Of a stretch of 64,000 nt of DNA, positions 13,641 to 55,889 are shown piece after piece. A program made the translations under genes and the position numbers. The DNA comes from Daphnia carinata (Eukaryota), in contig NC_081331.1 of NCBI RefSeq assembly GCF_022539665.2, positions 12,710,001 to 12,774,000 of the forward strand, in the 5' to 3' direction. Each line of letters opens with the position of its first letter. Positions within the stretch are counted from its first letter, which is position 1. The notes under the pieces are model-generated. The model saw only the letters and a list, made by a program, of their open reading frames with translations. It was not told the DNA's origin and did no database searches.

Positions 13641-15280
<1,640 letters not shown>

Positions 15281-16518: not shown

Positions 16519-16601
16519 GGTGGCCAACGTCTTGAGATTATCATCACTACTCTTCAACTGTTTCCAGCAGAGCAGAACAGCAGAATCTTCTTCAAACAAA
16601 A

Positions 16602-26698: not shown

Positions 26699-27980
26699 TT
26701 AGCCGTAGTAGGATCCTCTATAGCCTCCATGTCCACCAGCGTAGCCGCTATATCCTCCTTGATATCCACCGTATCCACCGCGATAAACCTTGCGTTTCTT
26801 TTCAGCTGCCTCCAGATCCGCTTCTTGGATGGACCTGCCTTTGCGTCCCTTATATCCTTTGTTGCGATGTTCAGCAGTTTGCTGATCTACAGCAACTGGT
26901 TCTTCTACGGCTGAGCGGCCTTTACGTCCCTTGTATCCCTTGTTGCGATGTTCAGCAGTTTCCAGGTCTGCAACAGAGCGGCCTTTACGTCCCTTGTAGC
27001 CTTTGTTGCGGTGCTCAGCGGTTTCTTGGTCTGCAGCAGCAGCTTCCTCTACGACAGAGCGGCCCTTACGCCCCTTGTATCCTTTGTTTCGATGTTCAGC
27101 GGTCTCCTGGTCTACAGCAGTGGCTTCCTCTACGACAGAGCGGCCCTTACGTCCCTTGTAGCCTTTGTTTCTATGTTCAGCGGTTTCCTGGTCTGCAGCG
27201 GTGGCTTCCTCTACGACGGAGCGGCCCTTGCGTCCCTTATAGCCTTTGTTGCGATGCTCAGCGGTTTCCTGGTCTGCAGCAGTGGATTCCTCTACGACAG
27301 AGCGGCCTTTACGTCCCTTGTAGCCTTTGTTTCGATGTTCAGCGGTTTCCTGGTCTACAGCAGTAGCTTCCTCTACGACAGAGCGGCCCTTACGTCCCTT
27401 GTAGCCTTTATTGCGGTGTTCAGCAGTCTCTAGATCTACCAAGGGTTTTTCTTCTCCTAGGGATCGGCCTTTGCGGCCTTTGTAGCCTTTGTTGCGATGT
27501 TCGGCAGTTTCCTGATCAGCAACAGATGCTTCTTCTCCGAGAGAGCGGCCTTTACGCCCCTTGTATCCCTTATGGCGATGTTCAGCAGTTTCCAGATCTG
27601 CGACAGCTGCTTCTTCTTCAGCAGAGCGGCCTTTACGCCCCTTGTATCCCTTTTTACGATGTTCAGCGGCTTCTAGGTCTGTCTCTTCTCCGGGGGAACG
27701 GCCTTTGCGGCCTTTGTATCCCTTGTAGCGATGCTCTGCAGTTTCTAGGTCTGAAACAGCCGTTTTGACCTGCTGCAGCTCCTCTGCAGCAGCCACCAAG
27801 GCCACTAAACACGCTAATGCGATCTAATGGAAGAATATAACGTAAAAGAGCCAATCAGACACAAAGAAATTACAGCCCAAAACACATTGTTAGATATGTG
27901 ATACCATCAAATCAAAAACACATGGCTAATCAACGTATATTAAAACACTAATTAAGTAAAACTCTTACCACGATTCTCAT
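26699..27980 (-). CDS. Multi-peptide precursor gene A: 12 x HRxKGYKGRKGR plus a C-terminal Gly/Tyr peptide
   Basis: Exon 1 27969-27980 (MRIV), exon 2 26699-27823. Signal IALACLVALVAA; acidic spacers ending D(L/Q)(E/Q)(T/A)AE alternate with the cationic repeat. Confidence 0.9.
26830..27760 (-). repeat. Coding tandem repeat, ~81-nt unit, 12 copies
   Basis: Unit encodes spacer + HRNKGYKGRKGR; the central units are nearly identical at the DNA level. Confidence 0.9.
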
Positions 27981-30474
27981 GTCGTTGCTGCTTGCTATTG
28001 TTGCTTGTAGAAGCGAATGGATTTGTTTATGTTTACCAAGTCATCGGCGTCCCCCTTTTATACCTACACCTAGTCACGCCCTTTTACGCACGGTGCTCCT
28101 AGACCAAGCGTTGTTTGCGCAAACAACTTATATAAGATACACAAATTCTTGAAGGACACGTGTTCTGGAACATCCAGTGAGTACCTCCCTATCCCTCTTC
28201 CCTTTTTTCTTGAACGAAACAAACACATTGCGTGAACTTGAATCCCGTCTGATGCCAGAGGCTAAAAGAATTCTCGTTTCCAGTAGAAATACGCCAAAAG
28301 GCAAATGCCCTCGACATGCGAGTGATCCAAAACAAGTGCAACGTATGACAAGAACTGGTTTGCCAATGACTTGCTGAAACTTCAGGAACCTCAATCGTAT
28401 CAACCAGAGACTTCACCGGCAAACTGTCAAGGCTAAACGCTCAGGTGTACCGGGTTTCACGATGAAATGAACGAGTTTGTTCGTAATCATTTGCATTTTT
28501 GGCTTTGTTCATTTGTTTTTTGTTTTGTTTTTTTGTTTTTTTTTGTTTTTGTTTTTGAGGATAAAACTTGAACTGGTTGCAGCAGTTTTAAGTGTTGGTT
28601 TAAAACATGTCGTGTCGTGTTATCCGGTGTATTTGCATGCTTATTGCTCGGGGTTTTACCCGAATGCCACGTTATGTAACACTTCCAAAAGATAGAACAA
28701 AAACAACATCTTGTTTCATTTTTCTTCACAGTGCCTGCGCATGGCTACTAAAGGTAGGAAGCAAAAAGCTGATGCATCGTTACTCAGCATTACTAAGCAA
28801 AAGGAAAACGAAAACGAATGAACCAAAGAAACATTTACATGCGATATGGAAGTATGTTTTTCGGAACTAAAAAATCATTAGAAAAATTTAAAATATTTGT
28901 AATGTTCATCGCTTGGTTGGAAGGACGTCTGTAAAGTAAGCGCACAACCGCAACAGCGAAGAACCGCAGAGCGCACTAAAGTAACATGAAAACATCGTTC
29001 CGGGAAATTGTATTATAGGGACAATAGCACTACCCTTTTCAAAAAAGGCCAAGATGCATCGCCGGGTTCTGGTCATTCGAAATACCACCAATGTTCTCAT
29101 GAAAGACTAATTAATTTTATGGAGCGAGATTTCTTATTTTTTTCATGGATTTTTGTTTTTCTTCGCCTGGACGTATTTTAGTTCTTTTAATTGACTGATA
29201 TGGTTCTCTCTGCCTAACCGCCAGCTTCTGTCAAGGCTCAGCCAAATTCCGGTTTATTATTTTCGTCAGGAAACAGTGGCAACCATTATGGGCATTGCCA
29301 GTGACAGCTTGCAACCAAAATGCCAATAGCCTTCAGATCAAACAGGAAACTTTTATTTGTACCTCATCATTACCGTGTGCCAAATGAAGTAGTTTACGAT
29401 ATGATAAGCAAAACCAACAGTGTGTCCTTCAATAATCTACGTCGCCCAAATGCCCTTTCAGCTGTCTTAATGTCTGAATTGTATTCGAAATTCATATATC
29501 GAACAATAGCTGCGCAAAACTGGGTTCTTTTAAATGAATCGTCGGCGCCTTCTCCGACAGGTTTGTAGTAAGGTTAAAGAGAACAAACAAACAAAAAAAG
29601 AATAATGCCGAAAGGGAAACGAGCAATACAGGTTCAGCTATTGGCTAACTGCTTTTCGTTATTCTTATGCTAGATGGTGCCAACACCAGGTGAGGGCGCA
29701 GTCTTATGCTTACGAGCCAACAGCTACAGGGTGCTATTCTTGTTTTATATAATCACATTTTAGGGATGTAAAAGAAGAAGTACGTAATATAATATGCTCT
29801 TCAAACAACTGACGAAGCCATACGCAAAACACCAACGTCGTCAAATGTATGTGGTATTTGAAGTTTTTAAAAATAAATTTACCATCTGTCCAGGTAGAAT
29901 TTTATGACGTCGAAAAGTTTTATTTGTGCAATTCTTCGGCATTGCTTTCTTGCGCAATATAAAGAAATTTACCGGGTACATGAACTGATAATATCGTGTG
30001 ATCAACCTAATAACTACTCTGCCAGTTTTATGTTCTTCACCTGCCTGATTATACATTTGCAAGCACGATTGCTCAAGGCGGAACGTGACGCATCTACAGA
30101 CTTTGAGACGTCGCCCTGTTACAATTTAAAACTTATGCTTCAGCCATTTAAGAGTCAAATTATACATGCAATGTAGTTTAACATTAGGAAAAGAATTAGC
30201 TCGAGAGGTGTTAGCTATGTGTCTCGCTTTCGGCTCATTTTTATAAGGATGGCGTTAGCTGTTTCCCACAGGTAAGTTAAATTACTATTTGCAAAAATTT
30301 TAGTAGAAATAAACAACTGATCTAAAAATTGCTTTTTGTTTATTGACACAAAAAAAAAGTTGATAACGGAAACATCCGATAAGGCAGAGTATATAAGTGC
30401 CACAGTGCCGGTAACATTTTGATTGACAGTTGTCGTTTAGAAATGGTAAGTTGAATGTTCGTGGAAGATTGTGT

Positions 30475-31129
30475 TTAGCCGTAATAGCGTCCACCGTATG
30501 CACCGTAGTTTCCACTGGGATATGTACCGTAGCTTCTTCCACGATTTCCTCCGTAGTTTCCGCTTGATGCTCCATAATGTACTCCGTAGTTTCCGCTTGA
30601 TGCTCCATAATATCCTCCGTAGTTTCCACTGGATGCCGTACGATATGCTCCGGAACTGGTTCTACGAGTTTCAGCTGTATTCAAGTCTGCAACGGCATCT
30701 TCTTCGACGGAGCGTCCGTATCGGGCTTTATGTCCGCTCTGTCCCCCATATCCTCCATAGCCGCTGTGTCCACTATATCCTCCATAGGCGCTGTGTCCTC
30801 CATATCCGCCACGGCCCCCGTAACCGCTGTATCCACGGTAACCACCGTACGCACCGAATTTGCCCTCAGCAGCATCCAAGTCGGTCATCTGATCAACTAG
30901 TTCAGCCTGGTCTAAGGCTGCAGCTACTGCCAACAAACACGCTAATGCGATCTATAGAAATTGGATCATAATGCTTAGCACTTTTAACTGTTACGTTGCT
31001 CTTCTTTGACATTTAGATTAGCACATCATTTAAATATTGCGTTGATGGGCATTTCACGATTTAATTACAGTTAGAGTGAACCAATTAAACTAAATTAGAA
31101 TAGATTTGCACACTTACCGCGATTTTCAT
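30475..31129 (-). CDS. Gly/Tyr-rich two-peptide precursor gene B
   Basis: Exon 1 31118-31129 (MKIA), exon 2 30475-30951. DLDAAE-peptide-RYGR-SVEEDAVADLNTAE-peptide, with three ASSGNYG repeats. Confidence 0.88.
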
Positions 31130-32383
31130 GGTTCTGACGACTTCTTGTTGGTGCTGAGCAAAATGAGTTGTGGGTATCGATGAAGCATTTTCTTATGTCT
31201 TTTATACCTGTTCATCGTGATGAATCATGCTTCCCTTCAATACACAATGTGTAATGTAGAAAGCTTATAATTTTGTTAATCTGCAAAAACCTTCGAAGTC
31301 GAATTCGTGTACAACGGATGGCATTGCCCATTTTGCCTTTGGTGCGTCCGTTCTTGAATCCTTGACGAAATAGTAGGACAAACGCGCCCATGGCCACGCC
31401 CGTCTTGCATAAAAAGCCCCGCTTGTTTTACAGAATGATCTTGTCCCGCATAAAGAAAATATTTTGTTGAAAATAAACCAATCTACTTAAAACTGACCAA
31501 TCAAATTTTCTGTTACCTTGAATGTTCGCACAAGAACAATTCAATTCTCTTCTTGGTTTGATATTCACTGTCCCCGCTCGATATATCAGTTGTTTCGGGC
31601 TCTCAAACAATAGTCGAAGGTCAACTAAAAAAAGCTATCTGCACGGTCTGATAAGCATCTTGAAAAGATTAAACACAAACGAGGATTGCCATTGAAAACC
31701 CGAATTCAAAGTTATGTTTTAGTTATGAGTTTAGTCTAATTAGAATCAATAAAAAAGAAAAGAAAAAGACGTTGATGCAGATGTGCATCTTATACCATCC
31801 TTAACCGATTAACTATAACAGCCCACAAAAACGAAGTTTTTCAACCGCTTTCGCAGCTAAAGTTGAATTATGCTTACGTAAAAAATTGGATAGAAAAACC
31901 TTAGGGGCTTGAATAGATCAAACAAACATCGATCAAGCAGAAAACTGTCAATCGATCTTTCGTATGGACAGGGATATGCGTAGTCGAATGTTTTTTTTAA
32001 GTCGCTGTTCGCGTCAGAAGGTGACAGTACTTTAGTTGAGCCGTTGGTGTTCACCTTAAACATTTCAGGGATAAGTAAAATGTAACCTACTGTAGATCCT
32101 TGTTTATTTTTCCCTTTCCATCTAGGACAAAATTGAAGAAACATACAGAAAATGAAGATCCCCATTTTTTCTCTAAAGGAATTTGCCCCCGTTTCGATGT
32201 TTTATCTCGCTAATAAGTGTCGACTGAGACCCACATCAGCTGATATGCAGTAGGCAGCCTATCTCACTAGCGATAACCCAAGAGTTAAATATCCAGCTTA
32301 AAGGGCGGCGATAGCTGGTCGTTTCCGTACAGTCACTAAAGTCGTTGAGTTCATGACACGTCTCGTACATCAACGTTAAAAAC

Positions 32384-34598
32384 ATGTTAACCTTTCTGTG
32401 CTCACTGCCCATTTTATGGCAAATCGGATTGCTCATTTCGCTTCTACTTGGTGGCTTTAAAGCCTACCTCTGGTACACGTTGGGTGTTTGTACCAGCACA
32501 AAGAAAATGTCGGGCAAAACGGTCATCATCACTGGAGCCAATACGGGTATCGGCAAAGAGACTGCCATTGATCTTGCAAAACGAGGAGCACGAGTCATTC
32601 TCGCATGTCGAGATCCAAAAAAAGCAGCGATCGCCAAAGGTAAGCCGGCCTTACTTTCAATACCATGGTAACACATCGCACTCGAAATTTTCACTGATTT
32701 TCTAACCGTTGGGGCAGATGATATTATTCAGGAAACCGGTAACAAAAATGTAGTCGTCCGCCACCTTGACTTGGCATCCCTCAAGTCTGTCCGCAAGTTT
32801 GCAGCTGAAATTCTTAAGAGTGAACCTCGTCTGGACATCCTCATCAACAACGCCGGCTGCGCTACAATTGAGAAGAAACTAACTGAAGATGGATTAGAGT
32901 ACCAAATGCAAAGCAATCACTTTGGTCACTTCTTGCTAACCAATCTACTGTTAGGTAAGACTTGTCCGGTAGAAATCGCAAGTTAGTAGGCAAATATTCG
33001 GTGAAAGTAGACTTAAACAGTTGGATCGTATACAATGTGTACATTATTTGATACGTTAATTGAAACTGAAGGATTGATCATCAAAACCGGGACTGCTCGT
33101 ATTATCAACGTTAGCTCTGAAGCCCATAGGATGCCCAATCGCTTGAATTTGGACGATCTGACCTTTGATCGTGACCCAGCTGACAGCAAAATTCTCAGAA
33201 TTTATGGTGTCACGAAGCTTTGCAACATTCTGTTTAGCAAAGAACTGGCAAGAAAGCTCGAACCTTGTGGTGAATGGTTTTCATTACTATTTACGGCTCG
33301 ATGAAAGAGTGTGTGCGTTATTCAACGGTGGAATGGAATGCCAAAGGCAACTGGTTTTCGTATCGAATCAGCATAAAATTGGCGCTTGAGCATGTTACTG
33401 TCAGCACTTCTATTCTTCTTCCTTCTTTTTTCATGTGCCTTGTCCTCCTAGGATTGCTGAAAAAATCAGCCCCTTCCCGCATCATTCACGTTTCTTCCAT
33501 GGCGCACGCTTTTACCAAGACGTTGGACTTGAATAACTTGAATTCGGAACTATCCTATAATACCGGCACAGTGTAGGCTATTAAATTGCCATTTTGTTCT
33601 GCGTGTCGCGAGTTTCTTTTTAATATGCACTATCATTTTTTTGTTAGATATTACTATTCCAAGTTGAGCCAAGTTCTTTGTACTCGACATCTCACACGTC
33701 TCCTTTCCAATTCCGGTAACGGCCAACAGCCAAATTTGCTTAAATCATAGAACAAAGTCAGATTTTCTATCACCCTACTCTACGACATTATGTTCGAAAG
33801 GCGTGACCGTGAACTGTTTACATCCTGGTGCTGTCCAAACTGAAATATTCCGCAACGCTCCTTCATGTAACATCAGCTCATTTAAATTATTGGCGCACCA
33901 ATTTCTATTCGACCTCACACTGTGTTATTCCTTAATTCATTAGGGTTCCAGATGATAGCCGCCATCACTTTTCCTCTTTTCTTCAAGGTTCTTTTCGTTT
34001 TTTTCTTAGTTCGCTTCCGCTTCTTATTTTCATTCCACTGATTGAGTAATTGCGCTTACTTCATTATCATCAAGCAAATGTTTTTAATTTCTAAATTGAT
34101 CGTACTAATTTACGCCTGTATCTCCAGGTAAGAATATAACTGTCAATTCTCTTCATCCGGGAGTCGTACATACCGAATTCGGTCGGTTCCTTCCTTATGA
34201 GGTTTTCAAGAAAATAATGACAGCCATTTCCCCCCTCTTCTCGAAGGTTGAGAGCGACTTATCAAGACACGCTTTTTCATTCTATTTGATTTTCTTAATT
34301 GATTCAATCGGTTGGTAAAACATGTGATTGTAAATCTTATTTTTAGTCGGCTAAAGAAGGAGCGCAGACCACAATTTACTTGGCTGTGGCTGACGAAGTC
34401 GCCAACGTTTCAGGAAAATATTTCTGCGATTGCAAGGTAAATGTTTCTATCGCAATTTGTATTGAAGATCATAACCGATGACTTTCTCGTCAGATCGCTA
34501 AAACCAGCAAATTGGCAAAGGATGCGGGACTAGCCAAAAAATTGTGGGAAGTCAGTGAAACGCTTGTTAAATTGAAGCCAGAAGAGCGACACTACTAA
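32384..34598 (+). CDS. Short-chain dehydrogenase/reductase, retinol dehydrogenase 11-14-like, with duplicated alternative internal exons
   Basis: N-terminal anchor, [44 protein letters not shown], two YxxxK-bearing exon sets, [34 protein letters not shown] at 34596-34598. Confidence 0.92.
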
Positions 34599-35444: not shown

Positions 35445-36427
35445 TTAACCGTGGTAGTGGCCGTGTCCACCACCGAATCCACCGTGTCCATATCCGCCGT
35501 GATGTCCACCTCCGTAACCGCCATGGTGTCCACCTCCATAGCCTCCGTGGTGATGGTGCCCACCTCCATAGCCTCCGTGATGATGGTGTCCACCTCCATA
35601 CCCACCATAATGGCCACCGCCATATCCATGGTGATGTTGTTCGGCGCCCTCCTGATCGGCAATTTCAACAACTGGCTGAACGACCGCTACGGCTGGCTGG
35701 ATTGCTTCAACAGATCTGCGTTTGCGTCCCCATCCGCCGAATCCATGGCTGTGCCCTCCTCCGTATCCACCATGGTGTCCGCCTCCATATCCACCGTGGT
35801 GTCCGCCTCCATATCCACCGTGATGCCCACCTCCATAGCCCCCGTGGTGATGATGTCCACCTCCATACCCACCATGATGGCCACCACCATATCCATGGTA
35901 ATGTTGTTCGGCGGCTTCCTGGTCGGTAATCTCAACAACTGGTTGGACGACCTCTACTGCTGGCTGGACGACTTCTACTGCTGGCTGAATTGCTTCAAGA
36001 GATCTGCGTTTGCGTCCCCATCCGCCGAATCCATGGCCGTGTCCGCCTCCGTGTCCGCCTCCGTATCCACTGTGGTGGCCGCCATGGTGCCCGCCTCCGT
36101 ATCCACTATGATGGCCGCCATAGTGCCCGCCTCCGCCGTGGTGCCCACCGCCGTATCCGCCGTGATGTCCACCACCGTACCCACCATAATGTTGCTCGGC
36201 AACGTCTTGATCAGCGACGACAGCAACTGGTTGGCTTCCCTCTACTAATGGCTGGTTTTCCTCAACGGCTACGGCTAGCGCCACTAAGCTCGCCAAGACA
36301 ATCTATGTAGATCACGTACATTGAAACAAAAAAGAATGCTCAGTGAATTAAACTAAACTCAATAATAAAAATCCTAATTGTTTGACACTACTTGTTTACA
36401 CAGCTGACAACTTACCACGAGTTTCAT
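35445..36427 (-). CDS. His/Gly-rich three-peptide precursor gene C
   Basis: Exon 1 36416-36427 (MKLV), exon 2 35445-36302. Three units DQxxAE-QH...(GGGHHGGY)n; the first two end GFGGWG-RKRR-S. Confidence 0.9.
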
Positions 36428-38687: not shown

Positions 38688-39141
38688 TCAGCCATGATGG
38701 CCGAAACTACCATAACCACCATGTCCGCTATGCCCACCATGCCCGCCATGATGTCCACCGTAGTGTCCGCGGCCTCCGTATCCTCCACGTCGATGTTCCG
38801 CAGTTTCTAAGTCAGCGACAACGGCATCGTCTTCAACGGAGCGACGCTTACGACCCCAACCATAGTGTCCATGATATCCGCCCCGATATCCTCCATATCC
38901 GCCACGGTAGCCTCCATAACCGTGTCTGCGATGTTCGGCCACATCAAGATCAGCGGCCTCGACGACAACGTCTGCTTCTTCAACTGCTGCTGCGGCTAGC
39001 GCCATTAAACATACTAATGCGATCTGATGGAAATAACATGCAAACATAATACAAGTCAACGTCAGATAAACAATTCGCAGATTTAATTCTAATTTCTTGA
39101 ATTTGAATGTAGGAAAAATGGAGTCTTACCACGACTTTCAT
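38688..39141 (-). CDS. Gly/His/Arg-rich two-peptide precursor gene D
   Basis: Exon 1 39130-39141 (MKVV), exon 2 38688-39023. DLDVAE-HRRHGYGG...YGWG-RKRR-SVEDDAVVADLETAE-HRRGGY... Confidence 0.9.
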
Positions 39142-40259: not shown

Positions 40260-41004
40260 TTAGCGTCCCCAACCATAACCTCCATAACCTCCATAACCTC
40301 CATAGCCACCGTAAGTAATGGGCCTATACCCATTGTAGCTACCATAACCATCGTAGTTACCGTAACCTCTATTGATACCATAGCCACCGTAACCACCGTA
40401 GGCTACATTATGATGCTCAGCGGTTTCTTGATCTACAACGACGTCGTCTTCAACAGAGCGGCCTTTACGACTGTGTCCATTGTATCCGCTGTATCCTCCA
40501 CGGCCACCATATCCAGCGTATCTTCGGCTTTCGGCTGCGTTAAGATCAGAGACATCCCGGACGATTGGTTCTGCATCCTCTACGATTGGCTGGTCTTCTC
40601 CAATTGAACGGCGTTTTCGGCCCCATCCACCATGTTGGCCGTATCCACTGTGTCCCCCATATCCGCCGTATCCACTATGTCCCCCATGTCCGCCGTATCC
40701 ATTAGGACGTCCTCCGTATCCACCATATCCACTAGGACGTCCACCGTATCCTCTGCTGTGGTGTTCTGCAGCATCCAGGTCTGTTACCTCACCGACTTCA
40801 GGTTTAGCCTTGTCCTCGGCTACGCATAGCGCCAGCAAGCAGGTCAGTACGATCTATAGTTGGATAGTGCAGCACGGAAATGAAATTTAGATTTGTTTAA
40901 GTAGGATATAGGCAAAAATACGTACACTTTGATTCGAAATGAGGTCTAACAGTAATCTTTTTGATATAAGTAAAGTGAGAATTAGATTTTACCACAAGTT
41001 TCAT
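40260..41004 (-). CDS. Gly/Tyr-rich three-peptide precursor gene E
   Basis: Exon 1 40993-41004 (MKLV), exon 2 40260-40853. DLDAAE / WG-RKRR-S / DLNAAE / RKGR-S / DQETAE; ends GYGWGR*. Confidence 0.9.
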
Positions 41005-42166: not shown

Positions 42167-42928
42167 TTATTTTCGACCATAATAATATCCACCATATCCA
42201 CCTCTGCGCCCAAATACGTCACGATCAGGACCAGTGTAACTATGTCCTCCACGAAACCCAAATCTTCCACGACTAAAGCTACCGTCAAAATCTTTGAGGT
42301 AATACACGCGGACAACGCCAATACTATCAGAATCATTTGAATCGTCAGCATTGCTTTCGTAGGTTCCACGAAAATCTGGATCAGTTTCGGATCTGGTCGG
42401 GGTCCATTAGACGAAATGAATTTCCTTCTATATACTGGAGCTCCAGGCCAAGCCCTGTTGCTGCCACTGCCTATGTCTTAAACCATTCTGTTGAACTAAC
42501 AAAATTCAATATTGATTTAGCAATCTTAAAATTACCATTATTGGCTTCGTTACTGGCAGCAGGGGCGTCTTTATCGGCGATTTGGTAGACGTTATTGTCG
42601 ACCGTGTTGACATCCGCATCAGTCTTTTGAACGATGGGATTAGGTCCGGTACGTTCTACTGGTTTCCACATAAAACAACATCGGTTTTATATTTTGTGTT
42701 AGTTTGCCGGTAAAGGGTTCCCGCATAATATAAATAAAATAAACTCTTATAGTTACCCAATTCGCGAGAAACTTTTGGTTTAATTCCGCCAATACTAGCA
42801 GCTCCCGCCAGTGCCAACAAGCACGCTAGGGCAATCTGGTCAATGATTACACATGGAGCAACAAAATGAATCAGAAATTGTTTAAATCGCTGAGAAAAAT
42901 TCGAATGAAATATTACCAAAACTCTCAT
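42167..42928 (-). CDS. Divergent member F of the precursor family (extra introns)
   Basis: Exon 1 MRVL (42917-42928), IALACLLALAGA signal, TATAAAA at 43017-43023. Further exons inferred at ~42757-42835, ~42536-42658 and a last exon ending RRGGYGGYYYGRK* at 42167. Internal splice pattern uncertain. Confidence 0.6.
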
Positions 42929-43915: not shown

Positions 43916-44464
43916 TTAGCCGCGGTGGCCGCCGTATCCACTATAACCTCCGTGTCCGCCATAACTTCCGTATCCACCATAACCTCCGTGTCCACCATAA
44001 CTTCCGTGTCCGCCGTAGCTTCCACGTCCTCCATAGCCCCAACCTCCACGACGATGTTCAGCGGCTTCTAAGTCAGTAGCAAGGGCGTCGTCTTCAACCG
44101 AACGACGTTTACGGCCCCATCCGTGTCCACCATATCCTCCGTAACCACCTCGATGTCCTCCGCCATACCCTCCGTATCCCCCTCGATATCCTCCGCCATA
44201 ACCTCCGTATCCACTAGGCCGGCCTCCGTAGTATCCGCTTCTGTGGTGTTCGGCAGCGTCTAGATCAGCTACCTGGACGACTACATCAGCCTCATCAACG
44301 GCGGCGGCTAGTGCCATTAGGCACGCTAATGCGATCTAATTTAATTGGTTCACACAATAGCTTTATTAAATTGAAAGTCCTTTCACTATCTTCAGAAAAT
44401 TATCTTAAACTACATATAATCACTATTCAAATGAAAAGAAATTATTTCTTACCACGACTTTCAT
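43916..44464 (-). CDS. Gly/Tyr-rich two-peptide precursor gene G
   Basis: Exon 1 44453-44464 (MKVV), exon 2 43916-44335. DLDAAE...HGWG-RKRR-SVEDDALATDLEAAE-HRRGGWGY... Confidence 0.9.
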
Positions 44465-45004
44465 GGCTTTGGGGAGTGTGAAACTGTTGCTCTCGATGGC
44501 TGAAGACTGATATCTATCCAGCCTGTTCGTGTCCCTTTTATACTGATTCACAGTCACGGTTGTTGCTTCTACTCTACCTGTAAGTTTGGCCGCATCCACT
44601 TAATCTGTAGTTATATAAGTTTCAAGACCTTGAAACTAAACTTAGAGGACAAACACGAAAACCCCCTTTTCCCTTGAAAACATCGCTGCCTATCTTACCT
44701 TTTAATTGTTTTCCGATGAAGCAAAACCATGCCGACCACGAACAATATTTAAAATAGAGGCAATTCTATTGTGGAATATTCTTGTATTGTAAAACACTTC
44801 ATAGCCCAATTAGGATAAGGGAATAAAATACAGAACCCACACCAGTTTGATTTGGTGTGAGTTAACGCTGATATCGTGAGCTGGTAGGCAGCATCCTGCC
44901 TCTCATTTCCTTTGACACCCAAGTGATTTTCCAGGTTCACAGTCGTTTTTTCTTCATGGGAGGCTTTTAAGCTCACTTTTTAAGCATTAAAAGAATTGAC
45001 CTGA

Positions 45005-45719: not shown

Positions 45720-46242
45720 TTAGCCATGATAACCACCATATCCGCCATACCGTCTATATCCACCATAACCTCCGTATCCACCATAACTTCCGTATCCGCC
45801 GTAGCCTCCGTATCCGCCGTAGCCTCCACGACCTCCATAACCCCAACCTCCACGGTAATGTTCAGCGGTGTCCAAGTCGGCCGCCAGCACTTCGTCTTCA
45901 ACCGAGCGACGTTTACGGCCCCATCCGTATCCTCTGTGTCCACCGTACCCACCGTATCCTCCGTGATATCCGCCACCGTATCCTCCGTATCCTCCGTACC
46001 GTCCGGGACGTCCTCCGTAGTATCCACCACGGTGTGCGGCAACATCGAGGTCAGCTACTTCGACTGCTACGTCCGTCTCATCAACGGCAGCGGCTAGTGC
46101 CATTAGGCAGGCAAATGCGATCTAGTTTGGTTGATTGAAAATGAAGATTCAAATTCGATTCAGAATGTACTATAGCAATGAATTGATATCATTTAACGTC
46201 ACTATTTAAATGAGGAAAGTAATATCTTACCACAACTTTCAT
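45720..46242 (-). CDS. Gly/Tyr-rich two-peptide precursor gene H
   Basis: Exon 1 46231-46242 (MKVV), exon 2 45720-46121. Close paralog of G; YGWG-RKRR-SVEDEVLAADLDTAE-HYRGGWGY(GGY)n. Confidence 0.9.
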
Positions 46243-46854: not shown

Positions 46855-47025
46855 ATGTCCATGAAGCACCTTTCCATGTCCTTTTGTGTTGATCGTTCAC
46901 CGTCACGGATTATTCTGTCTTATCTATAAGCTTGGACGTATTCAATTGGTTTTGATAAATAAAGGACAAAACCTTGGAATCCAAACCAGAAGACAAATGA
47001 AGAAATAACGTTTTTCCTTGAAGAA
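46855..47025 (-). pseudogene. Orphan promoter remnant of the precursor family (TATA destroyed, no coding exon)
   Basis: Colinear with the gene G promoter (44525-44680): gtcctttt..., tcaccgtcacgg, taagcttgg, accttgg, gacaaa, tttccttgaa. TATAAAA is replaced by CACAAAA and no MKVV exon follows. Confidence 0.55.
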
Positions 47026-47675: not shown

Positions 47676-48559
47676 TTAACGTCCCCATTGATTATGTCCT
47701 CCATATGAGCCATAATTGTTGGATGATTGCCCACCATAGCCAGGATAGCTGTTATAGCCACCACCATAGCCGCCATTATTTCCATAGCCATTATTTCCAT
47801 AGCCATTATTTCCATAGCCATTATTTCCATAGCCATTATTTCCATAGCCATTATTTCCATAGCCACCTGAATTTCCATAGCCACCATAGCTTCCGTAACC
47901 TTGAGCGTGATGCTCAGCAGCTTCCAAGTCAATGACGTCGTCGTCTTCGAGGGATCGGCGTTTGCGGCCAAATGCATGTCCACCGTGGCCACCACTGTGT
48001 CCACCGCGATGTCCTCCTGCGTTTCCATGCCGATGTCCTCCTCCTTGTCCAGCGTAATGACCACCGGTTCTTCTGCTCTCGGCAACATCAATGTCGACGA
48101 CATCCTGAACAAACGGCTGAACGCTCAGAACATTAGGCAGATTTTCCTTAACCGATCGGTGGCCTCGTCCGCCGGAGTATGCAGGTCCGTTAGAGTATGG
48201 ACGTTGGGCGTTAAGGTGTGCACTGTGTCCACCCCGATTTCCACCATAATTGCCAGCCTGTTGTCCACCATAACCGGGATTTCTAGACGCATGATGTTCG
48301 GCGACATCCAAATCAGCAATGTGTTCAACTTGTTCGATCCCTTGAGCTGTTGCGAATAGCGCCAGCAAACAAGTTAATGCGATCTAATCAGATCATATTA
48401 AAACGAATATGTAGGAATATGTTATTTCTTTGGACAACATAATAAAACTGATGAACTCCATATCCAACATGGGAAACGATTCACGCTTAAGAATTTGCCA
48501 TGTCAGAGGTTTGTTTTAAACTGATAGTTAGATAGTTTCGATCTTACGGCAATTTTCAT
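47676..48559 (-). CDS. Gly/Asn/Tyr/His-rich three-peptide precursor gene I
   Basis: Exon 1 48548-48559 (MKIA), exon 2 47676-48383. DLDVAE / RGHR-S / DIDVAE / FG-RKRR-S / DLEAAE; (GYGNN)x5 repeat; ends QWGR*. Confidence 0.9.
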
Positions 48560-49865
48560 GGTGTGAAGTCTTCAAGTGTTGTTTGCAGAATGGTGAAGTA
48601 TGTGTTAATGCATCCATTACTAGGCCTTTTTATACTTGTTCCGCGGTCAGGGCGAATTCGCCCTTTCCTGCACGAGCGTGTATAACTTCTACAAGAAACG
48701 CAAGACCTTGAAACACATGTTAAGGGTAAACAACTGGAAGATCCGCATGCGCCGGCGGTCATCCCGCGGGATTCTTATGTTGAAATGTCTAAATTTTTAT
48801 TGTTAGTAAGTAAGACCATGTACGAATAACATATATCATAAAACCGCATTGCTTCGCAAAGCTGTTCAAAGGACATGTGATTTTTGGCCAAGCCCTTTTG
48901 ATTGTAGATAATCAAATTAACTGAAATGGAAAGACATCAAAGGCAAAGACAAGATCAAGTTTGTGATGTTCCATACGTATGATTCCAATCTGCGGTGAAG
49001 CTATGCGTCACAGTGTATTTCAAATGTATTACTCAGGAGCCAATGGACCATTAATTTTCATATTTTCTTTAAGGAAGAGTCCCAAGGCTAGAGTGCTTAA
49101 AACTGGGTTTTTCCTTGGTTTTTGCTGGGTTTTTCCCTGCTGCTCAAAGGACGTTCATTTTGGAAAGTAAACTGACAGCCACTAATTCGAAACAACTCGC
49201 CATTGTCGTGGTAAACACCTCTGGTCATGTAAAAGAATGAAAAACATAATGAATCTGTGCCGCAATCCCGTAACATGCGGTAAAAAAGATGACATCTGTG
49301 AAATTAATAAAACCCTGAGCTCAAACCGAACGCTTTAAATTTTGCCAACTTGTGTGACCATTTTGATACGTTGTATTATACCACAGAGATTAAGATTCTG
49401 ATCGTCAATGGATAATCACAGATGCTTATGAGTTACACGTACAGTATATGTCATATTGTTCGCATTTACGGTCCATTGCTTCAATATTTGCTTATAGAAA
49501 TATTTATCCTGCATCTGCCCATGGTCGAACTGAGGACCCATTGCGGGTGAAACAACCATGATAACAATTACACTGCAGAGGCTTAGAAACACCACTTATG
49601 TTTACAATTATTTCTTTGGCAAGTAATGCAAAACGAAGCCATTGCAATCTCCAGTTTAACAGACTGTTATACGAAATCGAAACCAATTCGCTGCGCCTTA
49701 GACATGCCAAGTCCGTACAAAGAAGCAACAAGAAAATCGAATCTTAAAAACTCAAACCCTTTATTGGATTTTAAAACGAAGCGTTACAGCGTACCAATTT
49801 TACACAAAGAGTAAAAATCATGCAGATATTGACAGATATTTCGAGAAATCGATTTTTTCTTTCTT

Positions 49866-50417
49866 TTAACCGGAGTACCCAAAGACACGGTGGCCTCCAT
49901 TACTACCATAGCCCCAACCTCCGTATCCGCTGCGATAGTCACCATAGCCATAGCTTTTGGTATTTCCGTAGCCATTGCTTTTGGTACTTCCATAGCTTCC
50001 ATATCCTCCGGTACTTCCATAGCTTCCATAGCCTCCGGTACTTCCATAGCCTCCCCAACCTCCAGTGCTTCCATAGCCTCCATAGCTTCGACGCTGATGT
50101 TCCGCAGCCTCCAAATCAGAGGCAAGCGCTCCGTCTTCGACTGAACGGCGTTGACGGCCCCATCCGTATGTTCCACGATATGCGCTACCATATGGTCTAT
50201 ATCCACTGGGGTATCCTCCATGGTGCCAAACTCGCCTGGATTCGGCAACATCCAAATCAGATGCCTCTACTACTGCGTCCGTCTCAACGGCGGCGGCAAG
50301 CGCCATAAGGCATGCAAGTACGATCTGGTTTAATCAATCGAATTATAGTAAGCATATAAGTAAACTTATGAGAGCTAAAATAATTATTTTAAATTAAAAG
50401 CTTACCACGACTTTCAT
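49866..50417 (-). CDS. Gly/Tyr-rich two-peptide precursor gene J (recent tandem quartet, copy 1)
   Basis: Exon 1 50406-50417 (MKVV), exon 2 49866-50324. DLDVAE...YGWG-RQRR-SVEDGALASDLEAAE-HQRRSY... Confidence 0.9.
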
Positions 50418-51540
50418 TGTTGCAACGATTTGTAGAGTTAACTCGAGAGCTGAAGAACTTATGTCGATGTAGCCCAAATCCATGCCATTTTATACTAAAT
50501 AATCATCATGGCTTTTGCTTCTGTCCTCTTTTTGAATATATACACCCATCGATGGTTGCTGTAAAAAGCCACAAAACCTTGAACGACGATCTGGAGGACG
50601 AACAAAAAAAGACACCACCCCTAACCTTCCCCGTTTAATTTCTGGATCAGACCTTACTTTAGTAAATGAAATAAAAGAATTGTTTTTTTCTGTGACGACA
50701 AAATGATGATGATGATGAAGAATAAGGGTATATCCCTTATATGGTTGGCACTTTCTTATCAAATATGTTATTTGAAACGCGTAGTGATCCACATTGCACA
50801 CGCAAAACAGAGAACGGATGCCGTTTCAAACCTATCCGTATTAGCCTTATTTGTCACACTGGACGCATTTAAGGTCCTTTGCTACAATATTTGTTTATGG
50901 AAATATTTATCCTGCAACTGCCCAGGATCGAACTGAGAACCTGTTGCGTGGGAAACAACCGTGAAAACCATTATACTACAGAAGCTTATAAACAGATTTG
51001 AACTCTATCAACTATATCCTACTTCTACACTTTAATTACCTAAATTAAAAGCAAACTGCGGTGGCACATAAAAGAAAAACACATTATCAAAATGAAAACA
51101 CCTAAGCGACGCATATGTGTTGATATTCCAAATGTACCATAAAAACGATTCGTCGAATGCTCTATGAAAGATGCGCATGAATTTCCTATTGGATGTGATC
51201 GATGCACTTTTGTTACAAGAATTTCTTTGGTATATCATGCAAAACGAAGCCATCGCAATCTCCAGTTCAACAGACTGTTATGCGAAACCGAGACCAATTC
51301 GCTTCTTCTTAGACATGCCACGTCGGTACACATATGAAACAAGAAAACCGAATCTTCAAATGCAAACGATTTATTGAATTTTAAAACGAAAGGTTACAGC
51401 GTACCAATTTTCATGGTCATTGGAATGATTTTGAAACAGACCATTTAAACAAAAGTGACGTGGAATGAAAAGATTAAAACAAACGGTAACAATCATGCAG
51501 ACGTGCACAGGTATTTCGAGAAATCGATTTTGTCTTTCTT

Positions 51541-52127
51541 TTAACCGGAGTACCCAAAGCCACGGTGACCTCCATAACTACCATAGCCCCAACTTCCGTA
51601 TCCGCTGGGGTAGCCACCATAGCCATAGCTTTTGGTATTTCCATAGCCATAGCTTTTGGTATTTCCATAGCCATATCTTTGGGTACTTCCATAGCCTCCA
51701 TATCCTCCGGTACTTCCATAGCCTCCATATACTCCGGTCCTTCCATAGCCTCCATAGCTTCGACGTTGATGTTCCGCAGCCTCCAAATCAGAGGCAAGCG
51801 CTCCGTCTTCAACTGAACGACGTTGGCGGCCCCATCCGTATGTTCCGCGATATCCGCCACCATATGGGTTATATCCACTGCGGTATCCTCCATAGTACCA
51901 ACCGCGCCTGGATTCGGCAGCATCCAAATCAGATACCTCTGCTACCGCGTCCGTTTCAACGGCGGCGGCAAGCGCCATTAGGCATGCAAGTACGATCTGG
52001 TTTAATCAATCGAATTATAGTAAGCATATACTGTAAGTAAATTTATGAGAGCTAAAATAATTATTTTAAATGAAAAGCGCTACTTTTATCTTAGAAAAGA
52101 AATCAAAAATCTTACCACGACTTTCAT
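51541..52127 (-). CDS. Precursor gene K (quartet copy 2)
   Basis: Exon 1 52116-52127, exon 2 51541-51996. Near-identical to J, L and M. Confidence 0.9.
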
Positions 52128-52559
52128 TGTTGCAACGTTTTGAAGAGACAACTCGAGAGCTGAAGAACTGATGTCGATGGAGCCCAAATCCATGCCATTT
52201 TATACTAAATCATCATCACGGCTTTTGTTTCTGTTCTCTTTCTGAACATCTACACCGATCGAGATGGTTGCTGTAAAAGCCACAAAACCTTGAACGGCGA
52301 TCTGGAGGACGAACAACCAAAGACACCACCCCTAACCTTGCCCTTTTAATTTCTGCACCATACCTTACTTTAGTAAACGAATAAAAAAATTGCTTTTTCT
52401 TTGACGACTTTGGCAAAATAATGATGATGATGAAGAATAAGGGTATATCCCTTATATGGTTGGCACTTTCTTATCAAACATGTTTATTTCATACGCGTAG
52501 TGCTCCACGGTGACACGCAAAACAGAGAACGGATTGCTCATTAAACTTTCCCCGTTACC

Positions 52560-53030
52560 GACTCACCGTCACACCCACGCGAAGAATCTCTTATCTTATA
52601 GAGAGCTGTTTAAACAGTACGAGTATCCAAAACCTTGAAGCATAAATGAAGAAAAACGGGGAAGCCCCTCTGCTTCCACGGTCGTTCCCCAATCCTCTTT
52701 AGTGACACACTTGAATATGAAGGTGATCGTGAAGGAAAGACTGCCAATGAATAAAACAAGTTGTTCTTCTCGCTCCTCTTCAAAAACGTGTGTTCCCATG
52801 AAATCATGCATGTTAAAGGCTAAAATACAACGCCTCAAAATTTCCCAACAGTTTGATATGCTGCAAGAATCCAACAGGAAAAGGATATGTGATTGATGAA
52901 ATCTAGAAAATGTTCTTCCAACTTTATTCGTGCTCGAAGGTTAAATTCATTGCAGCTTATAAGTACTCTGGGAAACGTTCATAAGCAAGTGGTTAATATT
53001 GCGCCGGAATTGGCCAATTTGCCCACTATA
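52560..53030 (-). pseudogene. Duplicated 3' fragment (last ~10 codons plus downstream sequence) of the carbonyl reductase gene
   Basis: Highly similar to 56305-56775. Minus strand reads WANWPIPAQY* versus WVNGLLPAQY* at the real gene end. Confidence 0.75.
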
Positions 53031-53523
53031 CATGTTGAGAGACTTATTCCAACTCTGCCCACCATATCCTACTTCAACAGTTTAACTACATAGATCAAAA
53101 GCAAGCTGCGGTGGCACATAAGAAAAACACGTTATCATAAAAAAAAATGCCTAAACGACGCATTTGTGCTTATGTTCCAAATATACCATAGAAACGAGTC
53201 GTCGAATGCTCTATGAAAGATGCGCATGAATTTCCAATTGGAGGTGTTCGATGCACTTATGTTTACAAGCATTTCATTGGCAAATCATGCAAAACGAAGC
53301 CACCGCAATTTCCAGTTTAACAGACGGTTATACGAAATCGAGACCAATTCGCTGCGTCTTAGATATGCCACGTCCGTACACATAAGCAAAAAGAAAATCG
53401 AATCTTAAAAATGCAAACCCTTTATTGAATTTTAAAACGAAGGGTTACAGCGTGCCAATTTTACCAAACAGTAACAATCATGCAGACATGCACAGATATT
53501 TCGAGAAACAATTTTTTTTTCTT

Positions 53524-54123
53524 TTAACCGGAGTACCCAAATCCACGGTGGCCTCCATAACTACCATAGCCCCAACCTCCGTATCCGCTGCGATAGCCAT
53601 CATAGCCATAGCTTTTGGTATTTCCATAGTCATAGCTTTTGGTATTTCCATAGCCATAGCTTTTGGTATTTCCGTAGCCATTGCTTTTGGTACTTCCATA
53701 GCCTCCATATCCTCCGGTACTTCCATAGCCTCCATATACTCCGGTCCTTCCATAGCCTCCATAACCTCCGGTACTTCCATAGCCTCCATATGTTCGACGC
53801 TGATGTTCCGCAGCTTCCAAATCAGCAGCAAGCGCTCCATCTTCAACTGAACGACGTTGGCGGCCCCATCCGTATGTTCCACGATATCCGCCACCATATG
53901 GGTTATATCCACTGCGGTATCCTCCATAGTACCCACCGCGCCTGTATTCGGCAACATCCAAATCAGAGGCCTCTACTACTGCGTCCGTCTCAACGGCGGC
54001 GGCAAACGCCATTAGGCATGCAAGTACGATCTGATTTAATCAATCGAATTATAGTAAACATAAAAGTAAACTTATGAGAGCTAAAATAATTATTTTAAAT
54101 TAAAAGCTTACCACGACTTTCAT
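53524..54123 (-). CDS. Precursor gene L (quartet copy 3)
   Basis: Exon 1 54112-54123, exon 2 53524-54030. Confidence 0.9.
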
Positions 54124-55251
54124 TGTTACAACGATTTGAAGAGTTAACTCGAGAGCTGAAGAACTGATGTCGATGGAGCACAATTCCATGCCATTTTATA
54201 CTAAATCATCATCAGGGCTTTTGTTTCTGTCCTCCTTCTGAATATCTACACCCGCCGATGATTGCTGTAAAAAGCCACAAAACCTTGAACGACGATATGG
54301 AGGACAAACAAAAAAAGACACCTACCCTAACCTTCCCCGTTTAATATCAGGATCAGAGCTTACTTTAGTACATGAAATAAAAGTATTGTTTTTTTCTGTG
54401 ACGACTTTGACAAAATGATGATGATGAAGAATAAGGGTGTATCCCTTATATGGTTGGCACTTTCTTATCAGACATGTTATTTCAAACGCGTAGTGATCCA
54501 CGTTGCACACGCAAAACAGAGAACGGATTCCTTTGCAAACCTTATTCGTATTAACCGTATCTGTCACACTGGCCGCATTTACGGTCCTTTAGTTCAATAT
54601 TTACTTATGGAACTACCTTTCCTGCATCTGCCCAGGATCGTACTGAGAACCTGTTGCGTGTGAAACAACCGTGAAAACCATTATACTACAGATGCTTATA
54701 AAATGATTTGAACTCTACCAACCATATCCTACTTCTACACTTTAACTACCTTCATGAAAAGCAAACTGTGGTGGCCCATAAAGAAAAACACATTATCATG
54801 ATGAAAACACCTAAACGACGCATATGTGTTTATGTTCCAAATTTACCATAAAAACGAGTCGTCAAATGCTCTGTGAAAGATGCGCATGAATTTCCAATTG
54901 GAGGTGATGGATGCACTTATGTTTACAAGCATTTCTTTGGCAAGTCATGCAAAACGAAGCCTTTGTAATCTCCAGTTCAACAGACTGTTGTGCGAAACCG
55001 AGACCAATTCGCTTCGTCTTAGGCATGCCACTTCCGTACACATAAGCAACAAGAAAACCGAATCTTAAAAATGCAAACGTTTTATTGAATTTTAAAACGA
55101 AAGGTTACAGCGTACCAATTTTCATGGTCATTGGGATAATTTTGAAACATACCACTTAAACAAAAGTAATGTGGAAAGAAAAGACTAAAACAAACAGTAA
55201 CAGTCATGCAGACATGGACAGATATTTCGAAAAATTGATTTTTTCTTTCCT

Positions 55252-55889
55252 TTAAACGGAGTACCCAAAGGCACGGTGACCTCCATAACTACCATAGCCC
55301 CAACTTCCGTATCCGCTGGGATAGCCACCATAGCCATAGCTTTTGGTATTTCCATAGCCATAGCTTTTGGTATTTCCATAGCCATAGCTTTTGGTACTTC
55401 CATAGCCTCCATATCCTCCGGTACTTCCATAGCCTCCATATCCTCCGGTCCTTCCATAGCCTCCATAGCCTCTGGTGTTTCCATAGCCTCCATAACCTCC
55501 GGTACTTCCATAGCCTCCATAGCTTCGACTCTGATGTTCCGCAGCCTCCAAATCAGAGGCAAGCGCTCCGTCTTCAACTGAACGACGGTGGCGGCCCCAT
55601 CTGTATGTTCCGCGATATTCGCCACCATATGGTCCATATCCCTTGCGGTATGTTCCATAGTACCCACTGCGCCTGTTGTATTCGGCAACATCCAAATCAG
55701 ATGCCTCTACTACTGCGTCCGTCTCAACGGCGGCGGCAAGCGCCATTAGGCATGCAAGTACGATCTGGTTCAATCAATCGAATTATAGTAAGCATATAAG
55801 TAAACTTATGAGTGCTAAAATAATTATTTAAATTAAAAGCGCTACTTTTGTCTTAGAAAAGGAATAAAAAGTCTTACCACGACTTTCAT
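55252..55889 (-). CDS. Precursor gene M (quartet copy 4)
   Basis: Exon 1 55878-55889, exon 2 55252-55764; RWG-RHRR-S cleavage site. Confidence 0.9.

Follow-up and report, generated by a model that had tools for sequence, protein, structure and literature searches.

What is made by a run of 13 genes that lie close together in the water flea Daphnia carinata, and what might the products do? The genes occupy positions 26699..55889 of the window, a stretch of 64,000 nucleotides (contig NC_081331.1, positions 12,710,001 to 12,774,000 of the forward strand). A preliminary description of this DNA had proposed a tandem cluster of co-oriented minus-strand genes, and all 13 were recovered (labelled A-M from low to high coordinates, Table 1), each with a 4-codon first exon, a phase-0 intron and a signal peptide. 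The first exon occurs as MKVV (seven genes), MKLV and MKIA (two genes each), MRIV and MRVL; intron 1 is of the GT-AG type and 81-166 nt long, the hydrophobic signal-like stretch at the N-terminus follows the pattern I-[AV]-L/F-[ATV]-[CS]-L in all 13 genes, and each gene has a TATA box 75-95 nt upstream of the ATG. For genes J and I the RefSeq models were identical on inspection, with the same splice. The tandem arrangement held in that all genes are on the same strand, but it is interrupted between B and C by a short-chain dehydrogenase on the opposite strand. Within it, the J+K and L+M copies are offset by about 3.7 kb and share 88-89% identity, intergenic DNA included. The forecast that automated annotation would offer only glycine-rich or keratin-associated labels came true for gene J but not for gene I or for gene C, for which RefSeq has a shorter isoform labelled holotricin-3-like.

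Table 1. Features of the peptide gene cluster; positions are those of the window.
Feature	Position	Strand	Description
Gene A	26699..27980	-	378 aa, 13 modules; exon 1 27980-27969, exon 2 27823-26699
Gene B	30475..31129	-	162 aa, 2 modules; junction RYGR↓S; C-terminus YYG
Short-chain dehydrogenase gene	about 32357-33940	+	ORFs; Pfam adh_short in two exons; outside family
Gene C	35445..36427	-	289 aa, 3 His/Gly-rich modules, each beginning with Gln (predicted pyroglutamate)
Gene D	38688..39141	-	115 aa, 2 modules
Gene E	40260..41004	-	201 aa, 3 modules; C-terminus WGR-stop
Gene F	42170..42928	-	probably 4 exons; exon 1 and signal peptide as in family
Gene G	43916..44464	-	143 aa, 2 modules; DNA 79% identical to gene H
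Gene G proximal promoter	44540..44680	-	example of family type; kappaB-like, nuclear-receptor-like, CCGTGA, TATA
Gene H	45720..46242	-	137 aa, 2 modules; first motif ends AA instead of AE
Gene I	47676..48559	-	239 aa, 3 modules; GYGNN repeats; WGR-stop end; RefSeq ctenidin-1-like
Gene J	49866..50417	-	156 aa, 2 modules; RefSeq XP_057370209.1, keratin-associated protein 19-2-like
Gene K	51541..52127	-	155 aa, 2 modules
Gene L	53524..54123	-	172 aa, 2 modules
Gene M	55252..55889	-	174 aa, 2 modules; sole precursor with C-terminus other than G or GR
Recent tandem duplication	49593..56774	.	two-gene unit J+K vs L+M; blastn self-comparison

Twelve of the 13 genes encode repeated modules in which an acidic spacer is followed by a basic cargo. 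About 40 modules had been predicted in these 12 genes and 38 were counted (2-13 per gene) by the motif D-[LQI]-x-x-A-[EA], which ends in AE in 37 cases and in AA once; in 2000 shuffles of the proteins the motif count averaged 0.05 and never exceeded 2. Gene F is the exception: its last exon is uncertain (alternative acceptor or frameshift), and both multi-exon models built for it lack D-[LQI]-x-x-A-E and RxxRS, encoding instead an acidic middle and then an Arg/Gly/Tyr tail with a GRK end. All 26 internal junctions read R-x-x-R↓S. The internal spacers carry a net charge of -3 to -7 and have bodies of 9 to 32 residues, the cargos are basic, Cys is absent, and the boundary from acid to base always falls exactly at D-[LQ]-x-x-A-E. 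Ten of the 12 precursors contain YGGYG repeats. The cargo of gene A consists of 12 near-identical K/R-rich copies and one Gly/Tyr tail peptide, with nine copies of a predicted 10-mer, HRNKGYKGRK-amide. The 38 predicted peptides reach 94 residues, are of low complexity and contain 0-13% hydrophobic residues (AVILMFW); the three His-rich peptides of gene C and peptide I3 have a net charge of +1, and Pro content is 0-7 per precursor.

Furin-type proteases cut after RxxR, carboxypeptidases trim the basic residues, and PAM turns an exposed Gly into an amide. R-x-K/R-R furin sites and a Gly before basic residues as amidation signal had both been claimed for these genes, and both claims stand in part: 11 of 26 junctions are canonical furin sites but 15 are minimal RxxR sites (RKGR at 13 of them, RYGR, RGHR), and trimming would expose Gly at 21 of 26 junctions but not at the first junctions of I, J, K, L and M, though a G precedes. 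In the recent J-M copies this amidation context has been lost. Among relatives, Gly is exposed at 59 of 61 junctions (48/50 in 27 named or freshwater-type proteins, 11/11 in 8 merc-source proteins), a count that leaves out the window-derived P0009, P0047 and P0055 and the near-duplicate P0006, and in a second set of relatives at 91 of 99; P0058, P0059, P0065, P0066, P0067, P0102, P0140 and P0150 had been set aside before counting for different grammar or chance. The routes to Gly vary (GRKRR, RKGR, RGRR, RYGR, RFGR, RHGR), and it is exposed by 22 of 26 distinct junction types, where the local share of Gly is 0.49 (p=2e-4, assuming independent types). Likewise, the C-terminus is G or GR in 11 of 12 precursors, with about 5 expected. 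The residue predicted to be amidated can be W, F, Y, K, H, S or R, and only gene A repeats one peptide. An RHRR subfamily among the relatives is without Gly (7 junctions), and on inspection also without the P1 Glu.

Processing to amidated peptides is thus well supported computationally, and the secreted multi-peptide precursors with a common grammar and amidation signals that had been proposed are borne out by the 38 modules and the uniform junctions. The first step of the mechanism we propose, a signal-like N-terminus with alternating spacer and cargo and a cut site at every junction, can be read from the sequence; in the second step a furin-type cut, carboxypeptidase trimming and PAM would amidate 32 of the 38 peptides, as established enzymology suggests. 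We consider it highly probable that the genes encode a secreted spacer/cargo polyprotein that is cut at RxxR, trimmed and amidated.

Selection appears to distinguish between the parts of a module. Between the repeats of gene A, pN/pS is 0.04 for the cargo, 0.09 for the D-x-x-x-A-E motif and 0.66 for the spacer, with 18 synonymous codon variants against 3 amino-acid variants in the cargo and 8 against 14 in the spacer; the spacer drifts, whereas purifying selection acts on the repeated cargo. In genes J-M the first cargo has collected 18-19 nonsynonymous and 3-4 synonymous changes, compared with 6 and 10 in the signal, spacers and furin site (Fisher p=0.004-0.008), in agreement with the conserved frame and variable cargo noted earlier. 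A conserved frame with variable cargo is the pattern of defence peptide genes. However, the dN/dS of the cargo does not significantly exceed 1 (binomial p=0.2-0.4) and positive selection is not supported, so relaxation explains the pattern equally well. Copy number and cargo change fast between paralogues.

The named relatives of the family are all from Daphnia, with close relatives of gene B in D. magna (P0018/P0033), and a metagenome scan gave at least one locus among the 599 pattern matches listed. The 13 genes had no curated Pfam match, only sub-threshold hits to GRP, PGRS and DUF families, including DUF1459 for gene J. PDB sequences gave 0 matches to the family profile, and the ESM Atlas no usable match for gene D. 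Nematode proteins were not named among the matches of profile and sequence searches, a test weakened by low complexity. In a literature search, with subscription journals mostly outside its coverage, the family was undescribed and we found no report of activity, peptides or induction by infection. Six identifiers of family genes had no match in a Metschnikowia infection study based on another assembly, and there were no matches in the main text of a single-cell atlas or in supplementary data on D. sinensis. For 35300-44600 no RNA sequencing run was listed, which counts neither way.

Apidaecin precursors carry tandem Pro-rich peptides that are freed at basic sites, with X-Ala/X-Pro spacers removed by a dipeptidyl peptidase. 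The apidaecin layout suggested in the preliminary description fits as to the repeated peptides at basic sites (26 of 26 junctions), but the Daphnia precursors have no dipeptide spacers and no EAEP; instead they carry long acidic spacers of mixed length parity with a fixed end motif, and their cargo is not Pro-rich. Drosophila Baramicin (PMC8423362) also releases tandem peptides at RXXR furin sites from a single secreted precursor, much as the Daphnia junctions would allow. The nearest architecture is that of the spider complex precursors, in which a signal peptide and an acidic propeptide are followed by up to 13 cationic, Cys-free, frequently amidated peptides and anionic iPQM/PQM linkers whose charge mirrors the cargo (PMC8290080). 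Anionic linkers between cationic Cys-free peptides are common to both, although the spider linkers invariably have Arg as their last residue and Glu close by, whereas the constant element in Daphnia is D-[LQ]-x-x-A-E and the spacer, unlike the linker, begins with RxxR. PQM-like ends (Arg, with Glu 1-3 residues before) occur in 28 of 38 modules and iPQM-like starts (Arg, then Glu within 3 residues) at 13 of 26 junctions. The spider cargo is amphipathic, with alternating basic and hydrophobic residues, in contrast to the Gly/Tyr/His-rich Daphnia cargos, and no homology between the two kinds of precursor was found.

In composition the cargos come closer to glycine-rich peptides of other animals. 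C. elegans nlp-29 belongs to clustered Gly/Tyr-rich peptide genes whose expression in the worm is epidermal and infection-induced (PMC2453101). The nlp-29/caenacin genes and those of Daphnia are alike in forming a tandem cluster of small secreted Gly/Tyr-rich genes diversified by duplication. To our knowledge the acidic-spacer grammar is not known from NLP-29. Armadillidins, ctenidins, acanthoscurrins, holotricin-3 and AfRgly1 are linear, cationic and glycine-rich like the Daphnia cargos. According to PMC7017220, PMC5031766 and PMC12387859, armadillidins are isopod-specific single peptides with 3-7 GGGX repeats (X = F, Y, R, S, I), and Artemia AfRgly1 has 21.65% Gly, 3 Cys and a net charge of +9.25 over the whole chain. 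Against these descriptions, the Daphnia precursors contain no GGGF and at most one GGG[FYRSI] each, and they are Cys-free, unlike AfRgly1 as described. Ctenidin-1-like and holotricin-3-like are names that RefSeq borrowed for genes I and C. Activity has been measured for the analogues among Gly/Arg/Tyr-rich armadillidins, nlp-29 genes, Baramicin and the spider anionic-linker precursors.

Two functions had been put forward as leading, innate defence and cuticle, and both are kept. On the amidation signals, the conserved frame with variable cargo and these analogues, there is about an even chance that the 12 genes yield some 38 mostly amidated peptides that act as antimicrobials of the epidermis and cuticle surface. 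The acidic spacers would neutralise the cationic cargo until release, and the freed candidate peptides would then kill or restrain microbes on the body surface, with expression partly linked to the moult. Several observations run against antimicrobial peptides: low hydrophobic content and peptides of net +1 differ from membrane-lytic amphipathic AMPs, the first-junction amidation context is lost in J-M, and the RHRR subfamily has neither Gly nor P1 Glu.

The main rival reading, possible though rather less likely, is that the genes instead supply protease-activated material for cuticle, carapace or ephippium, in which acidic spacers would keep Gly/Tyr/His-rich chains soluble until secretion and the chains, after spacer removal, would condense on chitin and cross-link through Tyr, His and Lys at the moult. 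Sclerotised structures typically contain Gly-Tyr and Gly-His repeats, and the repeat content and low hydrophobicity of the peptides suit such a role. Selected C-terminal amidation and identical multi-copy 10-mers would be unexpected in a cross-linked structural protein, however, and the chitin-binding R&R domain (PF00379) was found in 0 of 13 genes, compared with E=2e-19 in the cuticle gene at 16772-17134. The promoters speak to both functions. Upstream of gene G, relaxed patterns picked after inspecting the sequences comprise a G3-T4 kappaB-like box at about -125, a nuclear-receptor-like [CG]AAGGT[CT] at about -90 and CCGTGA at -16, followed by the TATA box. Of 10 independent promoters, one contains the strict kappaB consensus, which is chance level (34/200 shuffles), while the FTZ-F1 core YCAAGGY, one of 12 motifs tried, has 9 sites in 7 of 10 promoters, a number reached in 0 of 200 shuffles; both results weigh against an antimicrobial role. 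Measured from TATA, the core keeps its position (-51 to -107) in 5 of 10 lineages, as it does in one of the two genes at locus L001. FTZ-F1 (consensus YCAAGGTCR) controls cuticle genes in Bombyx and Drosophila (PMC3766229), which favours cuticle, but the full consensus was found in 0 of 10 independent promoters and the cuticle and collagen genes within the window have no core near TATA. Grainyhead, GATA, EcR half-site and CRE half-site motifs showed no enrichment in the family promoters. A name-matched D. magna member drops under flumequine along with cuticle protein 3 and three cuticle protein 18.7 genes, which again speaks for cuticle rather than defence, although an antibiotic could equally lower microbe-induced genes. 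Promoter motifs and this one name-matched expression table are compatible with both functions.

Release of surface antimicrobials or of cuticle chains would in either case involve removal of the spacers. Removal by a dipeptidyl peptidase was considered and rejected: the first dipeptide is a removable X-Ala/X-Pro in 3 of 26 spacers, and spacer lengths are odd in 19 and even in 7. Since the spacers do not consist of apidaecin-type dipeptides, their removal likely takes an endoprotease, and it is probable that one reads D-[LQ]-x-x-A-E. The cut likely falls after Glu or after a nearby Arg. Most simply it would follow Glu, and peptides starting with Gln would then be capped as pyroglutamate; alternatively it would follow an Arg lying 2-3 residues beyond Glu, which 28 of 38 modules have; in relatives, such an Arg is found at 89 of 127 distinct sites. 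A peptide start immediately behind AE, as first described, is therefore one of two possibilities. A lead toward the protease comes from versican, which ADAMTS proteases cut at DPEAAE↓ARRG (E441-A442; PMC12226136). That site resembles the window consensus D-L-E-A-A-E↓H-R-R-G at P6, P4-P1 and P2'-P4', but ADAMTS4/5 favour a small hydrophobic P1' according to the same paper, whereas the 34 distinct Daphnia sites have His at P1' in 22 cases and Ala in none; the likeness is no evidence for ADAMTS. It is improbable, in our view, that the spacers stay on, so that RxxR cuts alone would give acidic-basic diblock peptides (coacervate, adhesive or mineral-binding) and D-[LQ]-x-x-A-E would serve as a sorting or binding motif. 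Such diblocks would suit a motif without an assigned protease and spacers that an X-Ala/X-Pro dipeptidyl peptidase could not remove, but the motif coincides without exception with the switch from acidic to basic residues, the bodies of the spacers drift and differ in length, and relatives most often have Gln after the motif (29 of 127 distinct sites), as would suit a freed N-terminus. Amidation, pyroglutamate and multi-copy precursors are neuropeptide hallmarks, present or predicted here, and modules of relatives end in RYGR and RFGR, but neuropeptide-like or paracrine signals acting on receptors through amidated C-termini (GW-, RY-, RF-, RK-amide) seem very unlikely given peptides of such length and low complexity, the fast change in copy number and cargo and the lack of a conserved C-terminal motif across the family.

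Should a cut after D-[LQ]-x-x-A-E be real, it would represent a new processing signal with a protease yet to be named. If cuticle were the true destination, the family would stand out as structural peptides with amidation and gating by spacers, an unusual combination. Classical AMPs are reported absent in Daphnia (PMC2685406), which confirms what had been stated earlier for insect families, and if the peptides are antimicrobial the gap left would be filled. A bolder and doubtful idea is that this water-flea-specific, fast-diversifying, amidated Gly-rich library may be the missing antimicrobial arsenal of Daphnia, released via furin, PAM and a glutamyl endopeptidase that would read a versican-like D-x-E-A-A-E, a route undescribed for arthropod defence peptides in the literature searched. 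The Daphnia family supplies exact candidate peptides with masses, which makes the question directly testable.

Scanning both strands of the window for a short first exon followed by a signal-like exon recovered 13 minus-strand genes (A to M, from low to high coordinate), all with the four-codon exon 1 and phase-0 intron that had been claimed for them, the intron being GT-AG throughout. A TATA box lies 75-95 nt 5' of every gene (13/13), and AATAAA occurs within 400 nt of the stop in 10 of 13. The array had been described as tandem, which holds for the co-oriented genes themselves but not between B and C, where a plus-strand dehydrogenase gene intervenes. The module grammar attributed to 12 of the 13 genes was borne out: a total of 38 D-[LQI]-x-x-A-[EA] motifs is spread over them (maximum of 2 in 2000 shuffles), and the internal junctions read R-x-x-R|S in 26/26 cases, each leading into an acidic spacer 9-32 residues long. 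What gene F has in common with the other 12 is limited to exon 1 and the signal peptide; its tail is an amidation-type Gly-Arg-Lys despite the absence of a spacer motif. A two-gene unit was duplicated recently to give genes J, K, L and M (88-89% identity). The RefSeq isoform of gene C (P0055, 165 aa) is missing some of the repeats, reflecting either alternative splicing within the repeats or a modelling artefact. Among the neighbours, some collagen-like genes have non-collagen tails, and the cuticle protein gene resembles the cluster genes in its TATA box and its short exon 1 (MKF-).

Positions of the cluster, selected parts of it and neighbouring genes in the window
Feature	Position	Strand	Remarks
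C1q domain exon	2-394	+	upstream of collagen-like genes
Collagen-like genes in a row	1689-15290	+	Pfam Collagen in four ORFs tested
Cuticle protein gene	16512-17134	+	R&R chitin-binding domain
Sodium:solute symporter	~17857-20511		precedes ankyrin-repeat ion-channel gene
Ankyrin-repeat ion-channel gene	22595-25413	+	Pfam Ank; weak Ion_trans; presumably TRPA-like
Cluster genes A-M	26699-55889	-	
Gene C	35445-36427	-	single 285-codon exon holds repeat region
Gene F	42170-42928	-	possible one-base frameshift in last exon, or late splice acceptor
Inverted repeat, gene G promoter	44619-44636	-	8-base arms, 2-base centre
Genes J-M	49866-55889	-	youngest copies
Carbonyl-reductase-type SDR, acetyl-CoA transporter, E2F-like gene	57211-62524	-	flank cluster

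Furin cleavage after RxxR and subsequent carboxypeptidase trimming of K and R are established enzymology, and under the PAM amidation rule an exposed Gly is called an amide. Both steps together would expose Gly at 21 of 26 window junctions, at 48/50 and 11/11 among the 35 relatives taken first, and at 91/99 in a second group of 62; the last figure is biased, as the profile used to collect these 62 included the columns in question. Counted by distinct junction type, Gly is exposed in 22 of 26 against a Gly background of 0.49. The precursor C-terminus is G or GR in 11 of 12 window genes and in 15/27 and 4/8 relatives, some of which are truncated or mis-modelled. The 38 predicted peptides (32 amidated) span 10-94 residues with a net charge of +1 to +8, no Cys and 0-13% hydrophobic residues. 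In all four of J-M the junction GRKRR has become GRQRR or GRHRR, so predicted trimming would halt before Gly; gene M has also lost its terminal Gly. Amidation thus appears to be decaying in these youngest genes.

For the N-terminal side, the cluster spacers were compared with apidaecin spacer chemistry. They are not dipeptidyl-peptidase substrates, so the apidaecin-type layout of the preliminary description is not supported in detail, and the N-terminal cut probably needs an endoprotease. A cut after Glu would be compatible with 37 of the 38 modules; among relatives the motif is most often followed by Gln (29/127), which such a cut would leave as N-terminus. A cut after an Arg 2-3 residues past Glu, in the style of the spider PQM, would fit 28 of 38; either may apply. 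With the Glu cut, calculated monoisotopic masses would be 1241.72 for the gene A decamer amide, 2404.16 for E2, 2981.36 for D1, 3441.53 for D2 and 5551.24 for C1 carrying pyroglutamate. The D-x-x-x-A-E site resembles, P1' excepted, the ADAMTS-cut versican site (PMC12226136).

When the 12 gene A repeats are compared with one another, pN/pS comes to 0.04 in the cargo including its basic site, 0.09 in the motif and 0.66 in the body of the spacer (pairwise values are non-independent; variant counts agree), so the peptide is the selected product. In J-M, amino-acid change is much faster in the first cargo than in the frame (Fisher p=0.004-0.008, three trees); the ratio for that cargo, 1.4-1.9, is not significantly above 1.

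None of the 13 genes reached a Pfam cut-off. Automated annotation had been expected to offer only glycine-rich or keratin-associated-like labels, which suits gene J, identical on inspection to the RefSeq entry keratin-associated protein 19-2-like of D. carinata, but not gene I (ctenidin-1-like) or the isoform of gene C (holotricin-3-like). Relatives were sought with a single protein, two junction profiles and a broad profile, which yielded 23, 20, 25 and 95 matches in that order. Every species-named match was from Daphnia (carinata, magna, sinensis, galeata, pulex, pulicaria). The lack of other arthropods among species-named matches is weak evidence for a restricted range, since the junction profile is short and two of the searches scored just the best ~7980 candidates. 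In D. galeata, one gene model joins cluster-family genes to a carbonyl reductase; as a reductase also adjoins gene M, the locus appears syntenic.

Relatives from the merc source form a divergent group, its junctions being R-Y-G-R|S and its starts E|Q-R-Y, and a second subfamily, with a member in D. carinata, has W-R-G-R-R|S junctions. A metagenome locus, L001, carries two tandem family genes with the same exon 1 as the cluster; by eye, a direct duplication of ~200 bases (1408-1806) lies between them. In P0063, P0089 and P0091 (D. sinensis, D. magna, D. carinata) the spacer is expanded, with degenerate D-Q-E-x-K-D-E units repeated into a long acidic tract. P0058, P0102, P0140 and P0150 are precursors rich in Gly and Tyr whose spacers are of the dipeptide type (K-R-S-A-D/E-A-E-P); in P0102 such a spacer end occurs together with R-Y-G-R|S junctions, a possible link between the two processing styles. 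In P0005 and P0035 the reading runs from the 5' leader through the intron position, which suggests cDNA origin. The family was not described in the literature found, most subscription journals and several supplements lying beyond the search.

In its workings the family resembles multi-peptide precursors whose linkers are anionic, yet it lacks a defining feature of the apidaecin-type, spider complex, armadillidin, CPR cuticle and amidated-neuropeptide families against which it was tested. Baramicin (PMC8423362), armadillidins (PMC7017220, PMC5031766) and the nlp-29 cluster (PMC2453101) are defence-peptide systems with matching traits, and in spider complex precursors (PMC8290080) acidic spacers mirror cationic cargo. 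Because charge-mirroring spacers, selected amidation, tandem expansion and a cargo that varies within a constant frame all match such systems, we favour, with about even confidence, a putative epidermal defence-peptide library. Classical AMP families are missing in Daphnia according to PMC2685406, in agreement with the preliminary description. Counting against a defence function are the low hydrophobicity of the peptides and a hint of a moult-type promoter.

The promoters have a common layout. The FTZ-F1 core YCAAGGY, one of 12 motifs tried, is enriched, occurring 9 times across 7 of the 10 independent promoters (0/200 shuffles), the full consensus being absent from these ten. Boxes resembling kappaB occur in 4/10 promoters, under a pattern relaxed after inspection, and at about -127 in H and D. 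Both motifs are regulatory hints only. The perfect inverted repeat in the gene G promoter contains a nuclear-receptor-like site.

FTZ-F1 regulates insect cuticle genes (PMC3766229), and the enrichment of its core speaks for the main rival, protease-gated cuticle or ephippium material, which we regard as possible though rather doubtful. Expression bears on both readings. The D. magna relative P0012 is tied by name only (shematrin-like protein 2, once per sheet among the rows listed) to the flumequine RNA-seq table in the supplement of PMC10253896, where the name-matched locus shows expression (logCPM 3.9) that drops by log2 3.96 at high dose (FDR 0.0009) and 2.86 at low dose (FDR 0.08). Five more ids in the rows listed, with family membership guessed from names and numbering, include two significantly down, two non-significantly down and one flat. 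Cuticle genes are also down in this list; since they fall too and the drug is an antibiotic, the drop is consistent with a shift in moulting as well as with lost induction by microbes. It is improbable that the spacers stay on, unremoved, and signalling peptides are more improbable still.

With a defence function as the favoured reading, the cluster represents a real Daphnia family of peptide precursors, apparently undescribed, whose processing signature is strong and whose function is putative.
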